Positions 2,809 through 14,355 of a stretch of DNA of 64,000 nucleotides are shown here, piece by piece. The stretch lies in IMG/VR virus record IMGVR_UViG_3300009104_000002, positions 96,001 through 160,000 of that record; one strand, 5' to 3'. Position 1 is the stretch's first letter. Each line of letters opens with the position of its first letter. This DNA comes from a virus. The translations under genes were made by a program, and so were the position numbers. Under the pieces are notes generated by a model. The model searched no databases. It had not been told where the DNA came from and saw only the letters and a program-made list of their open reading frames with translations.

Positions 2809-2847
2809 AAAAAATAAAAATCCCGTAATATATATTACAGGATTTTT
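2809..2847 (-). terminator. terminator downstream of prkA
   Basis: near-perfect palindrome 2816-2847 (AAAAATCCTGTAATATATATTACGGGATTTTT on minus) followed by ATTTTTT. Confidence 0.65.
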
Positions 2848-2881: not shown

Positions 2882-4822
2882 TTAACTATCTCTCCAGAGG
2901 TTGTTCGAGGCATATTTTATAATTTCATTTGCAGATTTCTCATTATAACCATAGTCCTCTATTAGTGTCTTTACCATTTCATTATATTTAGTTTGCTGCT
3001 TCTTATCTCTGGATTTAGATTTAGTAACAATTCTGGATATATCCCTAACAGATGTTAGCAGCTTATTTTCAATGGCCTCCTTCAATGGGCCATAGGAATT
3101 CCAATCAATTTTCTCCCCTTTTCGAAGTTTTGCGAACATATAGGCGGTGATATCTGCTCTAAAATTCTCCCTTGCCGAACCAACGATACCAATTTGTTCT
3201 TCAATTGATTTTAGGAATTCCTCGTCGGCTTCCATTTCTTCCTTGGTTACGCTATCTTTCACCTTTGAGCCATTAACATAGGCCTCGGCGTGATCGAGAT
3301 AATTATCAAACAGAGATTCTGCCTGTTCTTGATATGCTGAAACAAATGCTTTTGTAATTTCTTTCTCAAGAATTTTCAAATATTCGTCATGAAGTTCCTT
3401 CTGAAGAAAAGATAAATATTTTTCCCGAAGATCATCAACAACAATTTGCTCCTTTACCTGCTTTATGAGAGCATCTCTAATAGAAATCGGAGTAACCATA
3501 TTATCATCAGAATCTGCCAGAGCGGCGTCAATAGCCTTCATAATAAACCTCGTTGAAATTCCAGTCATCCCCTCATCTCTCACTTCATCGCGCAAGTCTT
3601 CAATATCAATCTTCTTAATATAGCCCTTTTCCACCACCTCGTCTCCGTTATAAATTTTCATCTTAGTCATCGGGTCGACTTTGTTTGATAATTTAATTCT
3701 AGATAAAACTGCGAACATTGCAGCAACTTCCAGGGTGTGAGGGGCAATGTGAGAATCAAAATCAGATTCATCTAGCATCTTTTTATAAATTTTTTGCTCT
3801 TCGCCAACTTCCAAACAATATGGAACATTTACACGAACAATCCTATCTAAAATGGCCTCGTTCGTATTTTCCGATTTAAATTTAACCCACTCTGCCTCGT
3901 TACAGTGGGCCAAAATGACACCATCAAAATAGATCATTGCACCCTTACCTGGGCTTGGGATGGCTTTTTCCTGAGTTGCAGTAATCATTGTATGCAAAAA
4001 TTCAATTTCATTTTTGAATACCTCGACAAACTCTACTATTCCGCGATTTCCTACGTTAAAAGCCCCGTTAAGGCTTAAAGCACGAGGGTCGTCCTCTGGA
4101 TATAGGTCTAATTTTGAAATGTCTTCTGACCCTATTAGGATGCTTGTATCCTGCGTGTTTGCATCCATAGGGGGGACAACTCCAATTCCTCGCCTGCCCC
4201 TTATGGAGAAGGATGTTTCAATTACTGGGAAATTCATATAATCCCCCTGATATTCCTCCAGGAGACGATGCCTACAGACTGGACACAAATCTCCCTCTAT
4301 TTTTATTTCATATATTTCCCTAAATTTAGACCTCAGGCTTCTAGGTATTAAATGAATTGGATCTTCCTGTATCGGGCAGCCCCTTAGAGTATATAAGGGT
4401 CCGGATTTTTCAAGAGCGCGCTTTATGTGCTCCACCAAGGCAGATTTGCCTGCGCCGACTGGGCCCAGCAACAAGAGGACTTGTCGACTTTCTTCTCCCT
4501 TCATAGAGGCAGAATGAAGATATCTCATTATTTTTGCCAATGATCTCTCCATTCCAAAAAAATTACTTTGAAAATAATCATAAGTTTTTACTCTTTCCCC
4601 ATTAAATAAATTGTTGCATCTATTATTATCTTCCGACATCTTTGTAATGCCTTGGGAAACTATTGTCTGATAGAGCCTCTTATGGGCCAAAATAGCCAAC
4701 CCCTTATTTTCCTCAAGAATCTCCAAATATTGTGCAAAAGTTCCTGAAAACTTCTTTCTCTTACTATCTTTTTTGTGTTTTTCGGCAATTTCTAAAAAAC
4801 TGCTAGTTTTTGAGTCTGTCAT
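2882..4822 (-). CDS. prkA: PrkA/YeaG family AAA+ protein (annotated serine protein kinase)
   Basis: 646 aa; Walker A GPVGAGKS, CPIQEDP, LNGAFNVGNRGIVEFVEVFK, MITATQEK, AILDRI family motifs. Confidence 0.93.
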   Translation of the reverse strand: MTDSKTSSFLEIAEKHKKDSKRKKFSGTFAQYLEILEENKGLAILAHKRLYQTIVSQGITKMSEDNNRCNNLFNGERVKTYDYFQSNFFGMERSLAKIMRYLHSASMKGEESRQVLLLLGPVGAGKSALVEHIKRALEKSGPLYTLRGCPIQEDPIHLIPRSLRSKFREIYEIKIEGDLCPVCRHRLLEEYQGDYMNFPVIETSFSIRGRRGIGVVPPMDANTQDTSILIGSEDISKLDLYPEDDPRALSLNGAFNVGNRGIVEFVEVFKNEIEFLHTMITATQEKAIPSPGKGAMIYFDGVILAHCNEAEWVKFKSENTNEAILDRIVRVNVPYCLEVGEEQKIYKKMLDESDFDSHIAPHTLEVAAMFAVLSRIKLSNKVDPMTKMKIYNGDEVVEKGYIKKIDIEDLRDEVRDEGMTGISTRFIMKAIDAALADSDDNMVTPISIRDALIKQVKEQIVVDDLREKYLSFLQKELHDEYLKILEKEITKAFVSAYQEQAESLFDNYLDHAEAYVNGSKVKDSVTKEEMEADEEFLKSIEEQIGIVGSARENFRADITAYMFAKLRKGEKIDWNSYGPLKEAIENKLLTSVRDISRIVTKSKSRDKKQQTKYNEMVKTLIEDYGYNEKSANEIIKYASNNLWRDS

Positions 4823-4823
4823 C

Positions 4824-6101
4824 TTAAAATTCCCATGGTTCTCCCTCTATAACAGAGGTAAATGTAACTTGATCGTGCCACAAATAACAAATATAGTTGT
4901 AAACTTTGTCGGCATAGGAAAGATCTAAATCTCTACCATCGTGCTCGTGTTTAATATAAATAGTATTACTTCTCCTATCATAATCAGAGACATAAACAAC
5001 TGGTATGCTATTTAATCCTACTCCTCTAATTAGGGCGTTTTGAACGCTTTTCCACCCTTCTTTATCAGATATTTCATTAATAACATAATTTCCTCTTGAT
5101 TGTCCGTAAGAATAACTAAAAAGATTTAATTCCCTGCATAAATCCTCATCTAAGTATTTTCTGATAAAAGATTCGTCATTATGTATTTCCCTGGCAAACT
5201 TACATTCTTCAAATCCATGCTCTTTTTCTATTTTTTTAAATATTGTATATCCAAGATGATACGGATTTATTCTTCCGACAATAGGCCTCACAACTTGATT
5301 GTGTGTCTTTAAAAATGCTAAATGATATTTGTCTGGAAGGTTTAGATCTTTCATTATCTTTTCATGAATTGTAACTGCCCAGCCTTCATTCATAATCTTT
5401 GTTTGAGCTTGGGGAATAAAATATAGAGATCTCTTTTCCACCATTTCTATTATGTCTTGCTCCCAATCTTTTAGATCTCTTGCGTTTTCTTTTATAAAAT
5501 TTAATAAATTATAATCTCTCATCTCTTCCATCATAAGGTCGTCATTTTCAAGATCTTTTTCTTTTTTCTTTTTTCTAGAAATTCCCGGTGTTCGCGGGAT
5601 TTGATATTTTATTGCATGACAGGCATCCAAGACTTTCTCCACCCTCTCAATACCAATGTTTGGATCCTCGATATAGGCTTGAACTCTTTTCGCCGCACTT
5701 TTAAATCGTGATATAATATTATCCGGATCCGTTTTTTCGAACATCCTATTGTTTTTAAAAAAATCAGAATGGCCCACGCAGTGAGACATTGTCAAAAGAT
5801 GCGTACTTATTGGATTTTCAAGCATCAAGTAGGCAATTGAGGGATTTGAATTGATAATCATCTCATATGGCAAGCCCTCCATTCCCAGATTATATCTTGT
5901 AATTGTCCTCTCAAATGATTTACCAAAAGACCAATGCCGATAATGAGTTGGCAAGCCAGTATATGCCATTGCGCCAATCATTTCATGATAATTGAGAATT
6001 TCGTATTCAATAGGGAACCAATCGAGTCCATATTTTTCTTTAGCGATTTTACAAATCTCTTTGTCCCACTTTTGTAATTCTTTTATTGACCAATCCTTCA
6101 T
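4824..6101 (-). CDS. spoVR: SpoVR/YcgB family protein
   Basis: AYTGLPTHYRHWSFGK, LPYEMIINSNP, HCVGHSDFFKNN, TKIMNEGWA, NPYHLG motifs; ATGA overlap with the upstream gene. Confidence 0.93.
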   Translation of the reverse strand: MKDWSIKELQKWDKEICKIAKEKYGLDWFPIEYEILNYHEMIGAMAYTGLPTHYRHWSFGKSFERTITRYNLGMEGLPYEMIINSNPSIAYLMLENPISTHLLTMSHCVGHSDFFKNNRMFEKTDPDNIISRFKSAAKRVQAYIEDPNIGIERVEKVLDACHAIKYQIPRTPGISRKKKKEKDLENDDLMMEEMRDYNLLNFIKENARDLKDWEQDIIEMVEKRSLYFIPQAQTKIMNEGWAVTIHEKIMKDLNLPDKYHLAFLKTHNQVVRPIVGRINPYHLGYTIFKKIEKEHGFEECKFAREIHNDESFIRKYLDEDLCRELNLFSYSYGQSRGNYVINEISDKEGWKSVQNALIRGVGLNSIPVVYVSDYDRRSNTIYIKHEHDGRDLDLSYADKVYNYICYLWHDQVTFTSVIEGEPWEF

Positions 6102-7303
6102 GGCTTTCCACCAAATAGCTTTCTAAACGATGGCCAAATATGGGTTGGCTTGGAGATTTTTACTTTTTTAAATTTTGAATCTATGATTGGATCAAGTTTT
6201 AACCATAGATTGGATGCCTCGCTAGCATTATAGCTAAATGCTTTACTGAGTATTCCCAATTCAGATTCTGGATCCGAGTTAGGATCAATTTCTGCATAAC
6301 ATATCATTTGATTTATCTCTTTCAATTCACTGAAAAGGTTTATAGCCTTTGTATTATCAAAGGACCAATTCTCCCCGTCTCCAGAATAAAAAGTATAGAT
6401 GTTCCAATTAGATGGGTGATATCTTTTTGAAATAATATCCTTTTCGAGTTGTAATGCCGTCGACATAACTGTTCCTCCCGATGTTGCTTTTTTGAAAAAG
6501 TCGTCCTCCGTTACTTCTTTGGCTTCCGTAGAGTGCGAAATGAAAATAACATCAACATTTGAATATTTATAATTTAAAAATTGATAGAGTAAAAAATAAA
6601 AACTTCTTGCCATGTATTTCTTCTCCTTATCCATAGATCCAGAAACATCCATTAGAAAAAACACAACTGCAGAATTATTCTCTTGTGGCTTGTTTTTCAT
6701 ATGTTTATATTTAATATCATCTTCGTGAAAAGGAAACCTCTCGTCGGAATTTTCGTCATATGAGCCGACTGAAATGGCCATCTTTTTTCTTCTTATTTTT
6801 CTTTTTATTGTTTCTTTTTTGGAAAGTCTTGATCTCATCCCCTTCTTGCGAAAGCCAGACCTTTTCAATTTATGAGTTTTAATAAAACGAAATTTCTTCT
6901 TTTCTAAATCTGGAAGTTCTAAGTCTTGAAACAGATATTCGGCCAACTCATCAAGAGTTACCTCAACTTCATAATATTCTTCTCCCTTTTCATCTGAGCC
7001 CTTTGATCCCTGTGACTTTTGCTTTTTTCCGCCTTTTCGAAGAATTTGTCCTCTTTTTATTTTTTTGTCTCCTGCTGAGCCAGCTTTTTTATTTTCTTTA
7101 TTTTCTCCATATACAAACTGATATTCTTTTATTCCCTTGACTGGGATCTTTACTTTCTTTTTTCCGTCTTGTCCGATTATTGACTCATCGGCAACGACGT
7201 CTTTTATTCCCTCTCTCAAGGCTTTATCAATTTTTTGCTTATGCCTTTTTCTATCTGCGGCAGATCTATCAGCTATTGATTTATGTTCTCTAAAGATACT
7301 CAT
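6098..7303 (-). CDS. yeaH: YeaH/YhbH (DUF444) vWA-domain protein
   Basis: DRSAADRKRH, KIPVKGIKEYQF, DLELPDL, MIDAS DVSGSM, SGGT and SGDGEN motifs; start moved to MSIFRE (7303) because the longer ORF start runs through a terminator hairpin. Confidence 0.92.
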   Translation of the reverse strand: MSIFREHKSIADRSAADRKRHKQKIDKALREGIKDVVADESIIGQDGKKKVKIPVKGIKEYQFVYGENKENKKAGSAGDKKIKRGQILRKGGKKQKSQGSKGSDEKGEEYYEVEVTLDELAEYLFQDLELPDLEKKKFRFIKTHKLKRSGFRKKGMRSRLSKKETIKRKIRRKKMAISVGSYDENSDERFPFHEDDIKYKHMKNKPQENNSAVVFFLMDVSGSMDKEKKYMARSFYFLLYQFLNYKYSNVDVIFISHSTEAKEVTEDDFFKKATSGGTVMSTALQLEKDIISKRYHPSNWNIYTFYSGDGENWSFDNTKAINLFSELKEINQMICYAEIDPNSDPESELGILSKAFSYNASEASNLWLKLDPIIDSKFKKVKISKPTHIWPSFRKLFGGKP

Positions 7304-7309
7304 TATATA

Positions 7310-7319
7310 TATAATTAGA
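7310..7319 (-). promoter_or_regulatory. motif variant TCTAATTATA directly upstream of the yeaH ATG
   Basis: similar to ACTAATTATA at 20402-20411; 6 nt to ATG; no SD present. Confidence 0.4.
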
Positions 7320-7322
7320 AGT

Positions 7323-7351
7323 AAAAAAGGGTTTCCGACTGGAAACCCTTT
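7323..7351 (-). terminator. rho-independent terminator after the LamG gene
   Basis: AAAGGGTTTCC-AGTC-GGAAACCCTTT perfect stem running into a T tract on the minus strand. Confidence 0.8.
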
Positions 7352-7375: not shown

Positions 7376-10300
7376 CTAAATTAGAGTTGATAAATCATTC
7401 CCGCTATTTCCAGCATTATAGATGGCCAGAACTTCGGTGGCTGTTAGCTCGCGGGTCCAGGTAGCAATATCGTCCATTTCTCCGTTAAATCTTAAACTTT
7501 GGCCGGCTGGCATGGGAGGGCTGTGGGCATATTGTCCGAAACGGACGGGATTAGTCGGTGCTGTCATGCCCGGATATGGTCCAAGGTTGTCATCGGCGTT
7601 GTCTACCTGCACCCCATTTATGTAGATCTTAATGCTATTCGATGAGGTTCCACCACCATAGGTAAAGCACGCGTGATACCACACACCATCGGATGGGGCC
7701 GGTGCTGTCCTCGCGATGCGGCGGGCGCCGTTAAGGTTATAACAAGCAGATCCGATGACGCCTGACTGTATGTAACTCTTCCATTCGCGGGTGTTATCAA
7801 CGCCGTCTTTTGATATAAGCTCCTGAACACCATACGGCGCCGAAGATGCCCAACCTGGCGTATTTTTAAACCATCCCGAGATAGTAAAGCCGGCAGTGAA
7901 AGAGACAGAGGACATGCCCACATCTATATAGTTGCCGGCCGTTGCAGAAGACATACCGGCTGAATTACCAAACTTGCCACCCTGATAAGTTACTGTACCA
8001 TATTCGGTGCCGTTGTAGGTCCCCAAGGAATCATTGGCGTTGCCATTGAGGGGCCAATATCCCGCGAGGCCAGTAGCCAGAGGAAATGTTGTTAAATAAA
8101 GATCTGCAACCTCACTGTCATTAAGTACTCTTGACCAAATTCTGACATCATCCATTTGTCCGTCAAAATTCTCGGTACCGTGGTATTGGGCTCCAATTCT
8201 GACTGTTTGGCCAGAGTTGATTGCACCTGTATTTCCGTGCGATACAGTCGATACAAGTTGTCCGTTTTTATAAAATTTAGTAGTAGTTCCAGAATTGGAT
8301 ACTGTCCACAGCGCCCATTCACCTACAGTCGGCCTGTAAGTGGCTGATGATGCAATTGTGGTGCTGCCACCCATACCTAAATCAACTCTATTAGCTGACG
8401 AGTTATATCCAAAGAAGAATCTACCTCCAGAACTACCCCAACTCATATACCTTCGAGATCCAGAAAGTGAATCATGCTTAACCCACATAGACATTGTAAA
8501 GGTAGCATTGGAAGCGGTGAAAGGATCATTCGACAGTGTGATTTTAGAATTAGATCCACTGAAGTCTGCGTAAGTTCTTCCACCTGCGGTGGCAAAGGTG
8601 ACGTTTGAAGCAGTTCCGTTATCTGATCCCGCAGAGTCGTTTGCATTGCCAGAATCAAAGTTCCAAGCTCCAATCAAATCGTCCGTAAGAGAAATTCCAT
8701 CCTCTCTCCCTGCGGAGTGAAGTGATGATGCTTCCGAGGCTGAAAGTCCTCGATTCCATTGTCTCACATCGTCCATGGCGCCATTATAAAAGGTGCTTGA
8801 AAGGCCATTTCTATATCCCAAAAATATATCATTTGATGTACTTGATACATTTTGAGATCCTGGGTCTCCGTACGTTGATGAATTATCAACACCATCAATA
8901 TAGAGCCTCACATCGCTGCCGTTTCTGGTAAGAACAAGGTGCTGCCATTGACCCACCACAATCGGTGTATTTCCGTTGCAATTATGACCGGCGCCTCCGA
9001 AATAAGAACTTACTTGGCCCTGATAAATAAACAATTCCAAGTTAGTGTAGTGCTTACTCCAAAGCATGCCAGAATAATTTACTCCCGGTGACACTACATC
9101 TGGATTTATCCACATAGAAATTGCAAAATCCCCTGTTCCAAATGAGTTGCTAGCATCGTGGGGAATTTGAATATAATCATTTGATCCGTCAAAATTGACT
9201 TCTTTCTTGGTTCCGGCTAGAGAGAACGTTGCTCCCGAAATTGTTCCATCATTCGACCCAACAGAGTCTTTTGCATCAAAGTCAAGAGCGTATTTTGCGA
9301 CCAGTCCGTCTGTTATTGACTGGGCGTCTTCAGCGCCAGCAGAATAAAGGGTTGAAATTTCTGAAGCAGAGAGTACCCTGTTCCAGATGCGAACATCATC
9401 AATCCCGCCATCATGATTAAAATTAGGGTCGCCTCCGCCGTAGCCGAGATATATATCTTGTGCAGAAGAAAACGTTCCCGTAAACCCCCCGTTATAAGAA
9501 GCGTTCCAGGTATCGGCGACACCGTTCAAATAAACTTTCTTTTCATTGGTGTCTGGGTCGAGGGTAATAATAAAGTGATTCCATCCTGCGGGGACTGCTG
9601 TGTTACCCCTGTTGTCTATCCATCCACCGCCCGTATTGTGCTGCGTTCTTATCTTCCCATCTAAAACAAAGAGGTTAAAGTATGAGCCAGGGGAAGTACC
9701 CCATTGAAACATATATGCATAGGTGTGCCCAGAATAAGTATAAGTGGTATCTATCTTCGCCCAAAATGAGACGGATGATTTTCCGGTTAAATCAACTGTG
9801 GCTGATGACTGTAGATATCCTATTTTTGTGAAATCCGCGTACTTATCAGAGCCATTAGTTGCATGACCGACTGTTCCGTTGGTGGTAAGATTATTCGACC
9901 CAACAGAGTCAGCTGCATCAAAGTCAAGGGCGTATTTTGCGACCAGTCCGTCTGTTATTAGCTGTGTGGTTGAGTGAAGAGTGCTTACTTCTGATGCGCT
10001 GAGGGCGCGAGACCAAACTCTAACGTCGTCAACATAATCAGCAAAGGCCTGATTATGAGTCGTGGCATTTGAAGCGCCGATAGCGGCCAAAGTTTGTGAT
10101 GATTTCCATGGAATCGATCCAACGCTGGCGCCGTCAACATAATAAGTTGTAGTTGCGCCGGATCCGACTGCCGTTATCATATGCCAGCCAGTATAGTCAG
10201 CCGGATTCATATCAAATCCACAATCATGGAAGCCCGGACCGGACTGATAGCCGCCAAGATTATTGGAGTTCCATTCGATAATTACCGGATGATCATTGGG

Positions 10301-12529
10301 GGCTTTCATAGCAGTTCTCCAATATGACCCTCCCGGCTTTAATCCCTTAAACCACATCGAGAATGTCCAATCTCCAGCTAAACTAGGATTGCTTGACGGC
10401 ACAAGTGCAATAGAACTAACGCTCGGATACGACCAGGCTGTTCGCGAGTCTACTGTTGCAAGAGATGCGCCAGTAAGCGTTACATTCGCCGATCCGACAT
10501 CTGCGGTTGTATCTTCGCAATTATGTTGCAGAATTAAGCCAACAGTAAGTCCGACACCATATGTCGTAGAGCCTTTTACAACAATATTTCCAGATCCATC
10601 GATGAGGCCATAATATAGTGTGTAAACACCATCAGCAACGCCAGTCATTTGCGCTGTTGTTCCAGATGGAACTGCAGTTCCTCCGTGTGCAGCACCTACC
10701 GCACCGAGGGGTGATGTCGAATAAGCCCAGCCGCCCGCTGCATTACTTCCGGGATCTCCGATTGTAGCGGTAATATCAACGGTATCTCCAGTAACGACAA
10801 CTGATGCATCGATAGTAGAATCCGCAGTTATAATGTGGCGGCCAGTGCCAGAATTCCACATCCATTCAATTTCTGCTTGACTCAGGGATTTTGTCCAATA
10901 TGCGACCTCATCCATTTTAACCCCGACAGCTTCATTGAACCAACCTCCATATGAGCCGTGATTGGATTGTACTCCTCCCAGGCGCATGTTGTTGACAGTG
11001 AAATTAACTGCATTTACAGCATTTGTTATTTCTGTTGCCTTTACTCCGTCTACCCAAGTTTGCATTGTTGATCCATTTTGAACGGCAACAATATGATGCC
11101 ACGCTCCGGTTGATAGTCCAGGAATCGCACATTGATATGGCGTTACATTAGAGTTATTGTATCTATAATAAAATCCAGTTGCATTTGTGGTACTTCCGAA
11201 ATTAACGGCGATCCCGCCTGGGCCCCAGGTCTGGTAATAAATTCCGTTATCCATCAAGCCGCATGTCAACTCTGAGTCACTATATACCCACAAAGAAATT
11301 GAATATGTTCTCGTACTGGTAATCATTGGGTGACCAAGATCGACTAGTCTATTGTCGGCGCCGACGAAAGCCTTTTGGTTCCACTTGTCGACATCATATG
11401 TGGCGGTGCCAACTGCCATTGTGGCACTGTTTCCATTGCCAGAAGCGTCAAGAAGGTCTCCGTTGAAGTGATAATATCTATTTAGATCAGACAAAATTAT
11501 GGCCGAAATATCCCGGAGGTCAGACTGAATTGTAGCAGAAGGGCCCACAACATCTCCATTTGCGTCGACGGGTGCAACATAAATTGTATGTAAAGCAGAG
11601 GAGAGCCCAGTGATTATAACACTCGTTCCTGTCTGAAATGTTCCTCCGTGTGGCTGACCAGTGGCGCCAAGAGGGGTGCCGACGCGATAGGCCCAACCTG
11701 CGGCTGAACTTCCCGGATCTGTTAAAGTGACGCCCAATGTAGTGTCTGTTCCGTCATTTGATTCTGTTAATGCAACGGTAGCTACTTGTTCGTAAGAGTT
11801 CATAACTGTTTGTACCTCTGACTGAGCCAGGGCCTTATTATGAAGATGGAAATCGGAGATTTTTCCCTTGAAAGAAACGGTGCCGGAATAAGCAGGGTTG
11901 TGTCCCACGGCAAACGCAACACCATTCGCCATAACAGCAGAGATAGATGATGGTGTAGCTCCATTTTCAAAGTTACTTGCTGCAAGATTTCCGTCGATAT
12001 AAATTTCAATATCGGTACCGGTATATACCATAGAGATGTGGTGCCACGCGCCATAACCAGGATTTGGAGAGCCAGTGCCTAATGGGATACCACCTGCCGA
12101 CAAGGTAAATCCGTTAGATGCCGTATACAAAGCATATAGGCCAGGATTTAGGCGATATTGGGCGCCCCAATGCTGACGAGTATCCAAAATAAGCATGTTT
12201 GTGTTTCTATAGGGAGACTTTCCCCACAAGCACTGAAATTCATTGAGACTTAAATTTTGTCCTGTATCTGCCTTGAACCAAAAGCTTACAGTCATTTTAC
12301 CCGTTGATGCAATTTGTGCACCGAGTGTGGACTCGAAATTATCGATTGTCAAATATTTGCCACCAGTACAGTCAAGGACGCGGCGGCCGGAAGAGGTCTC
12401 GACCTCCGGAGAGGCGCCACCAACATAGGTGATGCCCGTATCTTCGCTAGAATCAAACTTTATTCTCTTTAATAATTCGCCCTCATCGGTGGCGGTGGCG
12501 GCAAAAAAGCCCATTGGTGCTACAAACAT
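7376..12529 (-). CDS. multi-LamG (concanavalin A-like) virion adhesin/fibre protein, 1717 aa
   Basis: seven repeats of the LamG pattern (YxF/LxG..D..G.N; WHHI; xYxDG; G.MDDVRIW.R.LS..EV..LY) and two DPGS.AAG.WAY..PLGA spacers; AAGGAG SD. Confidence 0.88.
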   Translation of the reverse strand: MFVAPMGFFAATATDEGELLKRIKFDSSEDTGITYVGGASPEVETSSGRRVLDCTGGKYLTIDNFESTLGAQIASTGKMTVSFWFKADTGQNLSLNEFQCLWGKSPYRNTNMLILDTRQHWGAQYRLNPGLYALYTASNGFTLSAGGIPLGTGSPNPGYGAWHHISMVYTGTDIEIYIDGNLAASNFENGATPSSISAVMANGVAFAVGHNPAYSGTVSFKGKISDFHLHNKALAQSEVQTVMNSYEQVATVALTESNDGTDTTLGVTLTDPGSSAAGWAYRVGTPLGATGQPHGGTFQTGTSVIITGLSSALHTIYVAPVDANGDVVGPSATIQSDLRDISAIILSDLNRYYHFNGDLLDASGNGNSATMAVGTATYDVDKWNQKAFVGADNRLVDLGHPMITSTRTYSISLWVYSDSELTCGLMDNGIYYQTWGPGGIAVNFGSTTNATGFYYRYNNSNVTPYQCAIPGLSTGAWHHIVAVQNGSTMQTWVDGVKATEITNAVNAVNFTVNNMRLGGVQSNHGSYGGWFNEAVGVKMDEVAYWTKSLSQAEIEWMWNSGTGRHIITADSTIDASVVVTGDTVDITATIGDPGSNAAGGWAYSTSPLGAVGAAHGGTAVPSGTTAQMTGVADGVYTLYYGLIDGSGNIVVKGSTTYGVGLTVGLILQHNCEDTTADVGSANVTLTGASLATVDSRTAWSYPSVSSIALVPSSNPSLAGDWTFSMWFKGLKPGGSYWRTAMKAPNDHPVIIEWNSNNLGGYQSGPGFHDCGFDMNPADYTGWHMITAVGSGATTTYYVDGASVGSIPWKSSQTLAAIGASNATTHNQAFADYVDDVRVWSRALSASEVSTLHSTTQLITDGLVAKYALDFDAADSVGSNNLTTNGTVGHATNGSDKYADFTKIGYLQSSATVDLTGKSSVSFWAKIDTTYTYSGHTYAYMFQWGTSPGSYFNLFVLDGKIRTQHNTGGGWIDNRGNTAVPAGWNHFIITLDPDTNEKKVYLNGVADTWNASYNGGFTGTFSSAQDIYLGYGGGDPNFNHDGGIDDVRIWNRVLSASEISTLYSAGAEDAQSITDGLVAKYALDFDAKDSVGSNDGTISGATFSLAGTKKEVNFDGSNDYIQIPHDASNSFGTGDFAISMWINPDVVSPGVNYSGMLWSKHYTNLELFIYQGQVSSYFGGAGHNCNGNTPIVVGQWQHLVLTRNGSDVRLYIDGVDNSSTYGDPGSQNVSSTSNDIFLGYRNGLSSTFYNGAMDDVRQWNRGLSASEASSLHSAGREDGISLTDDLIGAWNFDSGNANDSAGSDNGTASNVTFATAGGRTYADFSGSNSKITLSNDPFTASNATFTMSMWVKHDSLSGSRRYMSWGSSGGRFFFGYNSSANRVDLGMGGSTTIASSATYRPTVGEWALWTVSNSGTTTKFYKNGQLVSTVSHGNTGAINSGQTVRIGAQYHGTENFDGQMDDVRIWSRVLNDSEVADLYLTTFPLATGLAGYWPLNGNANDSLGTYNGTEYGTVTYQGGKFGNSAGMSSATAGNYIDVGMSSVSFTAGFTISGWFKNTPGWASSAPYGVQELISKDGVDNTREWKSYIQSGVIGSACYNLNGARRIARTAPAPSDGVWYHACFTYGGGTSSNSIKIYINGVQVDNADDNLGPYPGMTAPTNPVRFGQYAHSPPMPAGQSLRFNGEMDDIATWTRELTATEVLAIYNAGNSGNDLSTLI
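9251..9959. repeat. 67-bp direct repeat pair (9251-9317 and 9893-9959), 63/67 identical, in frame
   Basis: encodes ITDGLVAKYALDFDA(K/A)DSVGSN at the start of two consecutive LamG domains; spacing 642 bp. Confidence 0.9.
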
Positions 12530-12571
12530 TAATCTATGTCTCCTTTTGTTTATGATTTGAAATCTGTTTTT

Positions 12572-13426
12572 TTAGCTGAAATTCAAACTAGCAGCGATAT
12601 AATATTTTACTCCGTCATAAAAAATGGATAACATATCTTCTGCGGTGGCGGCTGTAGACAGAGTAATGGCTGTCCCTCCGGCTTTTTTGAAATCTGCCCC
12701 CAAGGTGAGTGTTCTTCCGCCGGTTGAGTCCTGCTTAATTTTAAGCATATATGTTCCCGGTGCAACATTAGTAACAGAGTTGAGTGTTAAATTTCCCGTT
12801 GCAACGAGTGAGGCGCAGTTGCCCAATTGTGCATCCCACGAAATGGCCCCGGAGACATTTCCCAAACTTTGGTGTTTTGTCATACCCAGAACATTGTCCG
12901 ACAAAGAAACCTCAATAGAATTACCAGAACCAGCTTGGGCAATAGCCATCTCACCCCCAGACTTAGCTGAAATTCTTTTAAAAGTCATCGCTCCGGATGC
13001 AACGGATCCCAGTACGGATTCACCTTCTGACGTGCCTCCCAGGCTAGTAATATTAGTAATTGCCTCTGAAGTGTCACCTGTCACAATTCCCGATGAAGAT
13101 TGAGCTTTTACCAAGGTAGAGGATGCTGCCGTAGAAGTCAGGGATACCCTATCATATGTCGTGACATTTAATGTGCCCTTGATTTTTAATTCGGTACCGC
13201 CTACGACGGTATCCAAATCTGATTGCGGGCCAACATATCCAATAACCTCCCAGAGACCATCGGAAATTTTTCTTCCGTAAACTTTCACCATGACACGGCT
13301 CAAGATAGCCAATTCGCTCTCTCCAGACGCATCAATGTTCGCAGCATAATTTTCGAGCGTGTGATCCACACTGCCGTCAACCTGCGCTATTAAACTGTTG
13401 GGTCCTAACCCTAAAACTTGTGCCAT
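12572..13426 (-). CDS. fibre-type structural protein, likely partner of the LamG protein
   Basis: AGGAGGT SD; G.SVLG...MTFKRI fibre motif; C-terminal ISWDA...LKIKQDSTGGRTLT...DMLSIFYDG domain common in phage fibres. Confidence 0.65.
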   Translation of the reverse strand: MAQVLGLGPNSLIAQVDGSVDHTLENYAANIDASGESELAILSRVMVKVYGRKISDGLWEVIGYVGPQSDLDTVVGGTELKIKGTLNVTTYDRVSLTSTAASSTLVKAQSSSGIVTGDTSEAITNITSLGGTSEGESVLGSVASGAMTFKRISAKSGGEMAIAQAGSGNSIEVSLSDNVLGMTKHQSLGNVSGAISWDAQLGNCASLVATGNLTLNSVTNVAPGTYMLKIKQDSTGGRTLTLGADFKKAGGTAITLSTAATAEDMLSIFYDGVKYYIAASLNFS

Positions 13427-13509: not shown

Positions 13510-14355
13510 TTAAACTAGCGTTAAAATCTCCAAGATTAATCGCGTGTCGGCGGGGATTTCAAAGTTTGTAAATATGTCGCCACAATGAATATAAAATTCG
13601 CCAGTAAGACTACTATCTGTCAATAATTGTCTCAAGCCATCATCATAGATTGCTGTCTTTTCCAAAATTATAGTCTCTGTGACTCCAAGCAACGACTTTA
13701 CAGATGAGCCGGCAGGTATTGTTGCATAAGTTTCCGGAGTGGTATAAACAACCCTAACAACATTTCCCGATATGGGGGATGATGGTGAAGATGGCGAAGA
13801 TGGCGACGATGTTGTGGTGGTGTCAGATGTTGTGGCCACCAAGGAGGCCTGGACATCCTCCGGTAAAACACTCAGATTAATTAAACCTCTCCTTGTCCTT
13901 ATACACTTTGCCTCAATTTGAAATAGGTGATTAACTTGTCCGAAAAGCTGCCTGTCTTCCAAAAGCGAGACGATTTCGAAAAAAGATGAGCCATATTGTA
14001 TATAATCTCCCTCCCTAACATATAAATTTTGATCCTCAAAGAGTCTACGTTCATGAAATCTAACAATTATAGAGTATGTTTTATCTAATCCAAAATTATC
14101 TGTTGTTGTGTTGATCCCCTCAAATTCAACCAAAGCATATACTCTAACTGGTGGTAAGAAGCATTTCTCTATTGCCTCGCCATAAAGTGGGTGGAAATTT
14201 GTCCTTTCCATTGATATTGGCAAGTAAGTAATCGCCTGACCCTCCACTCTCTCCAACAATTCATCATTGACCTGCTTTACTAAGTCTCGCTCTTTTTGTC
14301 CGAAAAATAACGGAGGTGGTGGGTTCGATGGTTTTGTCCATTTATTATCTGCCAT
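13510..14355 (-). CDS. gp14-like head closure/neck protein, paralogue with C-terminal extension
   Basis: first ~164 aa ~73% identical (hand count) to 14369-14872; then a S/T/P linker (SSPSSPSSPSSP) and an extra beta domain. Confidence 0.7.
   Translation of the reverse strand: MADNKWTKPSNPPPPLFFGQKERDLVKQVNDELLERVEGQAITYLPISMERTNFHPLYGEAIEKCFLPPVRVYALVEFEGINTTTDNFGLDKTYSIIVRFHERRLFEDQNLYVREGDYIQYGSSFFEIVSLLEDRQLFGQVNHLFQIEAKCIRTRRGLINLSVLPEDVQASLVATTSDTTTTSSPSSPSSPSSPISGNVVRVVYTTPETYATIPAGSSVKSLLGVTETIILEKTAIYDDGLRQLLTDSSLTGEFYIHCGDIFTNFEIPADTRLILEILTLV

Follow-up and report, generated by a model that had tools for sequence, protein, structure and literature searches.

The analysed stretch of DNA (the window, 64,000 nucleotides) comprises bases 96001-160000 of the 190,479-bp IMG/VR virus record IMGVR_UViG_3300009104_000002, for which CheckV gave a completeness of 100%. 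Within its virion-gene region, the window carries three intact open reading frames (ORFs) head to tail on the minus strand, which encode members of the YeaH/YhbH (DUF444), SpoVR/YcgB and PrkA (YeaG/SpdA) families. It is well supported that this operon is a self-contained, permuted phage form of the cellular prkA(yeaG/spdA)-yhbH(yeaH)-spoVR(ycgB) module. It is equally well supported that the trio was gained once by the ancestor of a marine T4-type ('Far-T4'-like) lineage with genomes of 178-298 kb, and was then inherited mostly vertically and under strong purifying selection. We propose, with about even confidence, that the trio acts as a late ATP-driven machine for protein turnover or remodelling, which degrades bulk host protein. 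A preliminary description of this DNA, made from the sequence alone, had pointed to a complete, intact, phage-adapted and little-studied module, and this view is supported by the present analysis.

Sequence features of the three genes

The family assignments held in profile searches for the PrkA AAA, DUF444 and SpoVR families, all of which gave scores far above the Pfam threshold (Table 1). In PrkA, the N-terminal domain was matched by PF08298 (AAA_PrkA) with 484.2 bits (E 3e-145) and the C-terminal domain by PF06798 with 272.3 bits (E 6e-81), the gathering cut-off being 25 bits for both. PrkA also matches the solved structure 9xip, labelled 'Serine protein kinase', with an E value of 1e-97. 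The SpoVR_C profile yielded 22.4 bits, which is below its cut-off of 27.6; the region nonetheless aligns throughout.

The genes had initially been listed in the order PrkA-YeaH-SpoVR, which needs to be corrected, as the actual order of transcription is yeaH-spoVR-prkA. The close coupling described for the three intact genes was confirmed in the sequence. The yeaH stop codon and the spoVR start codon overlap in ATGA (6101-6098), and the spoVR stop is separated from the prkA start by a gap of 1 nt (TAA-G-ATG, 4824-4820).

PrkA's Walker A motif and the metal ion-dependent adhesion site (MIDAS, with the sequence DVSGSM) of YeaH were also found to be intact, as originally described, and are conserved in alignments. 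K126 of the Walker A motif aligns with K108 of PrkA from Bacillus subtilis, and an alignment of 136 PrkA homologues from phages and bacteria has 65 columns with a conservation of at least 97%. At its N-terminus, YeaH carries a conserved motif (MSIFREH..ADRSAADRKRHK), which is followed by a basic linker of low complexity and, at the C-terminus, by a vWA domain. Its MIDAS is complete, with D219, S221, S223, T278 and D309 invariant in an alignment of 40 sequences. Invariant residues in the SpoVR alignment are H56, H107, G110, H111, D113, E239 (part of NEGWA), H246, H267 and H385.

The phage is of the T4 type according to its gp23-type major capsid protein (MCP), portal protein and large terminase subunit (TerL), which match phrog_138, phrog_213 and phrog_2. 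The closest MCPs of cultured phages are those of Flavobacterium phage immuto, Microcystis phage Mel-JY01 and Rhodothermus phage RM378, which are of the 'Far-T4' type. The term jumbo phage, used at first, does not apply to this genome, which is just under 200 kb in length. The G + C content of the trio ranges from 36 to 39.5%; the genome has a mean of 39.7%, and the flanking genes are richer in G + C (44-47%).

Phylogeny, inheritance and selection

At least 137 IMG/VR contigs encode PrkA at identities of 61-100%, and all three genes are present in every kept locus with enough flanking sequence. The order yeaH-spoVR-prkA was found in all 74 phage-clade loci that hold the three genes in complete form. 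Both trees recovered the phage-specific clade that the preliminary description had suggested looking for. It unites the phage sequences with a Shimodaira-Hasegawa (SH) support of 100 in FastTree and an SH-like approximate likelihood ratio test (SH-aLRT) value of 97 in IQ-TREE (LG+C20). A survey of phages for the trio thus yielded this lineage and, in addition, phages of Thermus and Ralstonia and huge phages, which are treated below.

The MCP (56-76%) and TerL (45-65%) of the window's phage recur in five more genomes, which are complete or nearly so and have lengths of 178-298 kb. A sixth complete genome, which was picked on TerL alone, likewise has PrkA. Two genomes of the clade, 293,409 and 297,894 bp in length, have terminal repeats and exceed the 200-kb threshold for jumbo phages. 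Pairwise identities of PrkA and TerL among eight genomes are correlated with a Spearman coefficient of 0.79, calculated from pairs that are not independent of each other. PrkA was more conserved than TerL in 27 of the 28 pairs. Occasional exchange is possible, and inheritance may not have been purely vertical: the affinities of TerL and PrkA are discordant in one genome (G327).

Between the window and relatives at 82-88% identity, synonymous sites have reached saturation. Among closer pairs, the ratio of nonsynonymous to synonymous substitution rates (dN/dS) is about 0.038 for YeaH, about 0.038 for SpoVR and about 0.033 for PrkA.

Close PrkA homologues are also held by a 373-kb contig and by other long contigs. 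In one relative, a contig of 120 kb (L012, IMGVR_UViG_3300002231_000541), a frameshift immediately ahead of the MIDAS divides yeaH in two (L012:7453-8662). The first ORF ends out of frame after '...SAAILF' and the second begins with MDVSGSM; the same region is concerned in L010. The split in L012 could be a sequencing error, a pseudogene or a case of programmed frameshifting.

Cellular relatives and origin

The best cellular PrkA matches are chromosomal genes of Bdellovibrionota, which show an identity of 55-60% and are present in 114 of the 121 genomes sampled. Their loci always have the canonical order prkA-yeaH-spoVR. Compared to Bdellovibrionota, the identity is 41-47% for YeaH and 41-45% for SpoVR (determined for the one complete SpoVR). 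Every sampled cellular locus has the arrangement PrkA-YeaH(-SpoVR), with the canonical order in Bdellovibrionota, Legionella and Thermomicrobium, and also in the phage RsoM2USA.

The module of Bdellovibrionota comprises the same three families and all family-wide invariants (Walker A, MIDAS and the set of SpoVR His and Glu residues). As in the phage, its genes are adjacent and the yeaH-spoVR junction is tight. The phage trio differs in its permuted order, in its shorter SpoVR (425 compared to about 485 amino acids, aa), in forming its own clade and in its carrier, a lytic-type phage that holds it in or beside late structural genes. The short SpoVR noted in the preliminary description is a feature of the whole phage clade (425-436 aa), whereas SpoVR of Bdellovibrionota and proteobacteria has a length of 485-508 aa.

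Among 1.84 billion cluster representatives, only three full-length or near-full-length PrkA proteins exceeded 50% identity, and the next best reached at most 41%. One of the three belongs to Candidatus Epulonipiscium (Clostridia), with a PrkA identity of 51%. Identities to PrkA of Bacillus and Thermomicrobium are about 40%, while those to the YeaG type of Legionella, rhizobia and a further phylum, from an unclassified 'Proteobacteria' metagenome-assembled genome (MAG, G123), are 31-36%. In both trees, the long Epulonipiscium branch is sister to the phage clade, and the clade of Bdellovibrionota adjoins that pair. An earlier impression that the proteins look clostridial therefore holds in one respect, since the identities place the phage protein with the PrkA type and not with the YeaG type; it fails in the other, as the nearest sampled cellular clade is that of Bdellovibrionota.

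A recent transfer from bacteria was considered and rejected: the best cellular identity is 55-60%, which is far from identity with any bacterial chromosome, synonymous sites are saturated and the G + C content is that of the phage average.

Two related loci were found in bacterial MAG bins. The first (L083, PBIO01000025.1, G002:C25) is assigned to a Halobacteriovorax MAG and has the trio beside genes for an MT-A70 protein, a helicase and an HD protein, with a tubulin-like, a PhoH-PIN and an RNaseH-like gene as further neighbours. Another contig of this bin (G002:C13) holds an MCP and a TerL that are about 50% identical to those of the window. The second locus (L084, JBBAUR010000009.1, G001:C9) is part of the Bdellovibrionota MAG EUL_302 and has the trio in phage order, flanked by GroEL-like, UvdE, Fpg, AAA, GDSL-lipase and PAS histidine-kinase genes. 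A search of this MAG for MCP and TerL found neither. PrkA of L084 groups with a 298-kb phage bearing terminal repeats, and contig C5 of the same MAG carries the canonical cellular trio. Both loci are probably binned phage DNA, L084 being a probable fragment of a jumbo phage. The co-binning of a related phage with a marine predatory bacterium is perhaps a weak clue to the host, and Bdellovibrionota were considered as hosts on account of the two bins and of the nearest cellular PrkA clade.

Peptidase genes were seen next to two of the cellular trios. The trio of Thermomicrobium roseum (L132) is flanked by an M42 metallopeptidase gene and that of Legionella adelaidensis (L133) by genes for aminopeptidase N and an M20 hydrolase. 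As an anecdotal observation, these neighbours fit a role in the recycling of proteins and amino acids.

Predicted structure of SpoVR and contact with YeaH

SpoVR was modelled by AlphaFold2 with a predicted local distance difference test (pLDDT) score of 82.7 and a predicted template modelling (pTM) score of 0.82 (84.2 and 0.83 for the N-terminal domain alone). Residues 1 to about 330 were modelled as a zincin-like fold, which is followed by a small C-terminal alpha/beta domain. Comparison by VIA-align gave Z scores of up to 11.5 (full model) and 10.7 (domain), over 170-190 residues with a root-mean-square deviation of 3.5-4 Å; in helical models, scores below about 13, and hence those of 9-11.5 seen here, can be due to chance. 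Nearly all of the top 50 rows are proteins of the zincin fold, mostly the catalytic domains of zinc metallopeptidases. The matches include DUF885, M1 aminopeptidases, LTA4H, M3, M30, M32, thermolysin, DPP III and MATCAP, and further the peptidase-like TAF2 subunit of TFIID and YbeY. Foldseek searches of the PDB with the whole protein and with the N-terminal domain returned no match at E ≤ 0.001.

In the model, H107, H111 (spaced as H-x3-H) and D113 lie on a predicted helix of residues 98-117, and E239 of NEGWA lies on a helix of residues 235-252. This arrangement resembles the HExxH...NEGFA signature of M1 enzymes, and E239 could be the third ligand. In the sequence H107-C108-V-G-H111, the nearly invariant Cys108 takes the place of the catalytic Glu of HExxH. 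Because of this replacement, the model suggests that SpoVR should be called zincin-like only, and not a zincin peptidase. No weak match to a peptidase family was obtained by hmmscan with SpoVR at E values of up to 10, and a literature search for SpoVR as a metalloprotease found nothing relevant.

For the complex of YeaH and SpoVR, the interaction prediction score from aligned errors (ipSAE) was 0.82, compared to 0.01 for the best control. Of 80 solved complexes, 58 attained the mark applied to this score, as did 2 of 110 mismatched pairs; this calibration is only rough, since our own alignments were used for the prediction. Three runs shared at least 84% of the contacts, with a pLDDT of at least 85 for the partners. 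The predicted interface is formed by residues 1-24 and 57-90 of YeaH, including the invariant D17 and R20, and by residues 55-61 and 385-400 (C-terminal domain) of SpoVR. In the PDB, phmmer detected no match to SpoVR and nothing above noise for YeaH; as there is no solved complex of these families, the score cannot be explained by recall of a structure.

According to the models, the N-terminus of YeaH is thus predicted to clamp SpoVR. The yeaH-spoVR junction is overlapping or within a few nt in most loci of the phage clade and in other sampled loci. The predicted contact fits this tight junction and also the phage rearrangement, which moved prkA and left yeaH and spoVR together.

Transcription unit and genomic neighbourhood

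The bounding terminators of the preliminary description were found again as intrinsic-terminator-like hairpins (Table 1). Since they flank the trio on its coding strand, the trio is a transcription unit of its own in this genome. The gap between the upstream terminator and the yeaH start codon is only 22 nt. It contains the CTAATTAT box, a near match to the motif CTATTTAT, which occurs nine times in the window. Eight of the nine occurrences are on the coding strand, mostly in intergenic gaps before structural genes and often just past terminators (sites include 13468, 19903, 27802, 37483, 43622 and 45642). Nine occurrences were reached in 3 of 100 shuffled controls. In the relative L014, an exact CTATTTAT box is located between the homologous terminator and yeaH. 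Judged by sequence, CTATTTAT is a candidate late-promoter box of this phage group and CTAATTAT a candidate late promoter of the trio.

Table 1 Features of the yeaH-spoVR-prkA locus in the window (positions are those of the window)
Feature	Position	Strand	Description
Intrinsic-terminator-like hairpin	7326..7351	-	End of upstream LamG-repeat gene; 11-bp stem + T-run
CTAATTAT box	7311..7318	-	7 nt before yeaH ATG; one mismatch from CTATTTAT
yeaH/yhbH (DUF444)	6098..7303	-	401 aa; Pfam PF04285, E 3e-107, 359.6 bits
MIDAS codons	6632..6649	-	DVSGSM, YeaH residues 219-224; from sequence and alignment
spoVR/ycgB	4824..6101	-	425 aa; Pfam PF04293, E 6e-117, 391.4 bits
prkA (yeaG/spdA family)	2882..4822	-	646 aa; N-terminal AAA+ and PrkA C-terminal domain
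Walker A codons	4442..4465	-	GPVGAGKS, PrkA residues 120-127; from sequence and alignment
Intrinsic-terminator-like hairpin	2816..2847	-	End of trio unit; 14-bp stem + T-run, 35 nt past prkA stop

A position between fibre genes, as stated at first, was confirmed on one side only. The upstream gene encodes an adhesin-like LamG-repeat protein of 1717 aa with seven Laminin_G_3 domains, whereas no family match was found for the downstream protein of 841 aa. The gene for the LamG protein and that for a 284-aa protein with a weak tail-fibre match form an insertion (7376-13426) between the trio and a structural-region gene (13510-14355), which was found only in this genome and in the contig L003. Among the closest relatives, with a PrkA identity of at least 82%, the homologue of 13510-14355 is immediately followed by the trio, which is located about 3 kb downstream of the capsid gene; in most close relatives, only a few nt lie between the structural-region gene and the trio. 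In the distant half of the clade (PrkA 61-77%), none of the structural-region genes of the window was found within 10 kb of the trio. The placement in close relatives and the candidate promoter box suggest that the trio is expressed with, or adjacent to, the late structural genes.

Outside of the window, ARAGORN called a transfer-messenger RNA (tmRNA) gene on the minus strand (G000:C1:22470-22842) with the tag peptide ANNNNHFQAVALAA. Genes for tRNA-Arg(TCT) and tRNA-Met were called beside it. A phage that combines a PrkA module with a tmRNA, by which proteins are marked for proteolysis, may be tuned to managing proteostasis when its host is stalled or starved. Identification of the host might also be helped by the tag.

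Related loci in other phages

The trio is not a new kind of gene set: it is known in phages, where it has been annotated since 2006, and is unstudied there. In GenBank, trios were found in the Thermus phages phiYS40 (DQ997624), TMA, phiLo, Lalka and MN1, in Ralstonia phage RsoM2USA and in the huge phages LR756502, LR756511 and LR745206. These tailed phages hold complete or near-complete sets of PrkA, DUF444 and SpoVR. The trio of the jumbo phage RsoM2USA appears as table entries in its description (PMC8504454), and our literature search found no paper in which phage trios were analysed as a module. A blastn search ('distant') of the locus against GenBank phages gave no match, and the other phages were reached only by protein searches.

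The other phage trios are only 30-35% identical to that of the window and branch with other cellular subfamilies, which indicates independent acquisitions. RsoM2USA has the canonical order, unlike the window, while in phiYS40 the DUF444 and spoVR genes precede prkA, as in the window. In phiYS40, an additional ORF of 616 aa without a Pfam family (YS40_058, L130:3001-4851) lies between spoVR and prkA and may encode a fourth component of the module. What the present analysis adds in testable form are two model-based features, the predicted YeaH-SpoVR clamp and the putative HCxGH/NEGWA site of SpoVR.

Proposed function and alternatives

PrkA of B. subtilis binds and hydrolyses ATP by means of its Walker A motif, has no kinase activity and degrades casein in an ATP-dependent manner; ATP binding and the sporulation function are lost in the K108A variant (PMC9512850). 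The same study reported PrkA as Lon-like. In Escherichia coli, starvation induces a largely non-specific proteolysis of cytoplasmic proteins, which provides the cell with amino acids and ATP and requires YeaG, known as SpdA since October 2026 (PMC13684143). As late as mid-2026, YeaH and YcgB were described as uncharacterised.

Because of the bulk proteolysis that depends on YeaG/SpdA and the ATP-dependent protease activity of PrkA, we read the phage trio as a protein-turnover or remodelling machine, and consider the chances for and against this reading to be balanced. PrkA would be the AAA+ motor and YeaH the adaptor, with an N-terminal motif that clamps SpoVR and a vWA/MIDAS domain that is left free for PrkA or for substrates. 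SpoVR would serve as the metal-binding, zincin-like subunit. With the operon expressed together with or next to the late structural genes, bulk host cytoplasmic protein would be degraded as in the starvation proteolysis of E. coli. The amino acids and energy released would then support the synthesis of very large virions in nutrient-starved ocean hosts. The substrates, the timing and the benefit for the phage are presumed throughout.

Several points weigh against this proposal. In vitro, protease and kinase activities were negligible for PrkA of Bacillus anthracis, a protein that this species requires to sporulate and to tolerate osmotic stress (PMC13001217), and the E. coli study of SpdA tested neither YeaH nor YcgB (PMC13684143). 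Under nitrogen starvation of E. coli, YeaG and YeaH were read as a joint 'metabolic brake' and not as a protease (PMC10954441), and YeaG has been reported as a kinase of AceA in work cited in PMC9512850. To these reports are added, from our own data, the Cys108 of SpoVR, its Z scores in the chance range, the negative Foldseek searches and the discordant TerL and PrkA affinities of one genome.

A more specific form of the protein-turnover machine is a split ATP-dependent protease, in which PrkA would be the unfoldase, SpoVR a peptidase derived from a zincin (HCxGH...NEGWA) and YeaH the tether between them. We regard this form as tentative and rather doubtful. If true, it would explain why protease activity of PrkA alone is weak or absent despite the need for YeaG in starvation proteolysis. 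Abundant ocean phages would then turn the host proteome into virion parts, as the protein counterpart of DNA-recycling nucleases.

Known systems are similar to the trio in their way of working only. FtsH and Lon combine an AAA+ ATPase with a peptidase-type domain, which has the zincin fold in FtsH, and perform ATP-dependent bulk or regulated proteolysis. The trio differs from them in consisting of three separate proteins with a vWA adaptor and in the HCxGH motif of SpoVR in place of HExxH; no sequence homology of SpoVR to M41 or S16 peptidases was detected by hmmscan. In MoxR-vWA, RavA-ViaA and BchI-BchD, the gene of an AAA+ ATPase adjoins a vWA/MIDAS gene, as in the phage. PrkA, however, belongs to a different AAA+ family with a large C-terminal domain, and the trio has SpoVR as a third obligatory partner, which is predicted to bind at the non-vWA end of YeaH.

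The main alternative, which we consider unlikely, is a control of the host state. The trio would then be a 'metabolic brake' or signalling unit (kinase or ATPase) that resets the stationary-phase, RpoS or quiescence programme and keeps a starved cell productive or holds it quiet, without bulk degradation. The two reports mentioned above speak for it: YeaG and YeaH are reported to quiesce metabolism jointly, with mutants recovering faster from starvation (PMC10954441), and YeaG has been reported to act as a kinase on AceA (cited in PMC9512850). Marine hosts are chronically starved, and the independent gain of the trio by at least four phage groups fits a general lever on host physiology. On the other hand, a takeover function would be oddly placed in the late structural region, PrkA has a degenerate P-loop in its C-terminal 'kinase' part and was found to lack kinase activity (PMC9512850, PMC13001217), and the quiescence phenotype may itself follow from proteolysis (PMC13684143). 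As to sporulation or pushing the host into or out of dormancy, which had been suggested for the phage, nothing ties the module to either.

AAA+/vWA pairs are known remodelling chaperones, and the preliminary description had also offered a repurposed assembly chaperone, for which no specific support was obtained. Such a role in virion assembly or maturation, with the pair, in the manner of MoxR-vWA or RavA-ViaA systems, remodelling a structural protein, inserting a metal or cofactor into it or (via SpoVR) processing it, would suit the closest relatives, in which the trio lies about 3 kb from the MCP gene and right after a conserved structural-region gene. This neighbourhood is not conserved in the distant half of the clade, however, and Thermus and Ralstonia phages place the trio among non-structural genes. 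The trio proteins lack a leader of the capsid-targeting type, and the retention of all family-wide invariants of the cellular module argues for an unchanged core activity. We therefore consider this role improbable.

Slightly less probable still is a function in counter-defence or competition, by selective destruction of defence, stress, toxin-antitoxin or rival-phage proteins. An ATP-dependent protease could plausibly be put to targeted proteolysis, and PrkA is reported to affect regulators such as ScoC and sigma-K in Bacillus. The locus shows neither a defence-island context nor diversifying selection; a dN/dS of about 0.03 and a PrkA that is more conserved than TerL are the reverse of what an arms race would leave behind.

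Bacterial contamination, an assembly chimera or a recently acquired dead passenger gene set, to which the two loci in MAG bins might point, can be practically dismissed: an independent 18-kb contig from another sample (L003) repeats the junctions of the 284-aa protein, LamG, trio and 841-aa protein genes at 98-100% protein identity, dozens of further assemblies have the trio directly behind phage structural genes, the trio is present in the viral contigs counted above, its G + C content is that of the phage and it is under strong purifying selection, while both MAG loci nest in the phage clade and one of the MAGs also holds a matching MCP and TerL.

Significance

The PrkA/YeaG-YeaH-SpoVR set is among the most widespread bacterial gene sets with an open mechanism. 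A constraint above that of the terminase, together with at least three other independent captures by phages, indicates that the trio works as one unit and pays off in infection. The phage copies are compact and open to tests in E. coli mutants and would serve as a minimal set for reconstitution, and the predicted YeaH-SpoVR clamp and zincin-like fold of SpoVR give concrete mutations to try. If phages do digest the host proteome in starved cells, this would add to the auxiliary metabolic functions a class that has gone unrecognised, and would affect the flow of nutrients in the ocean.

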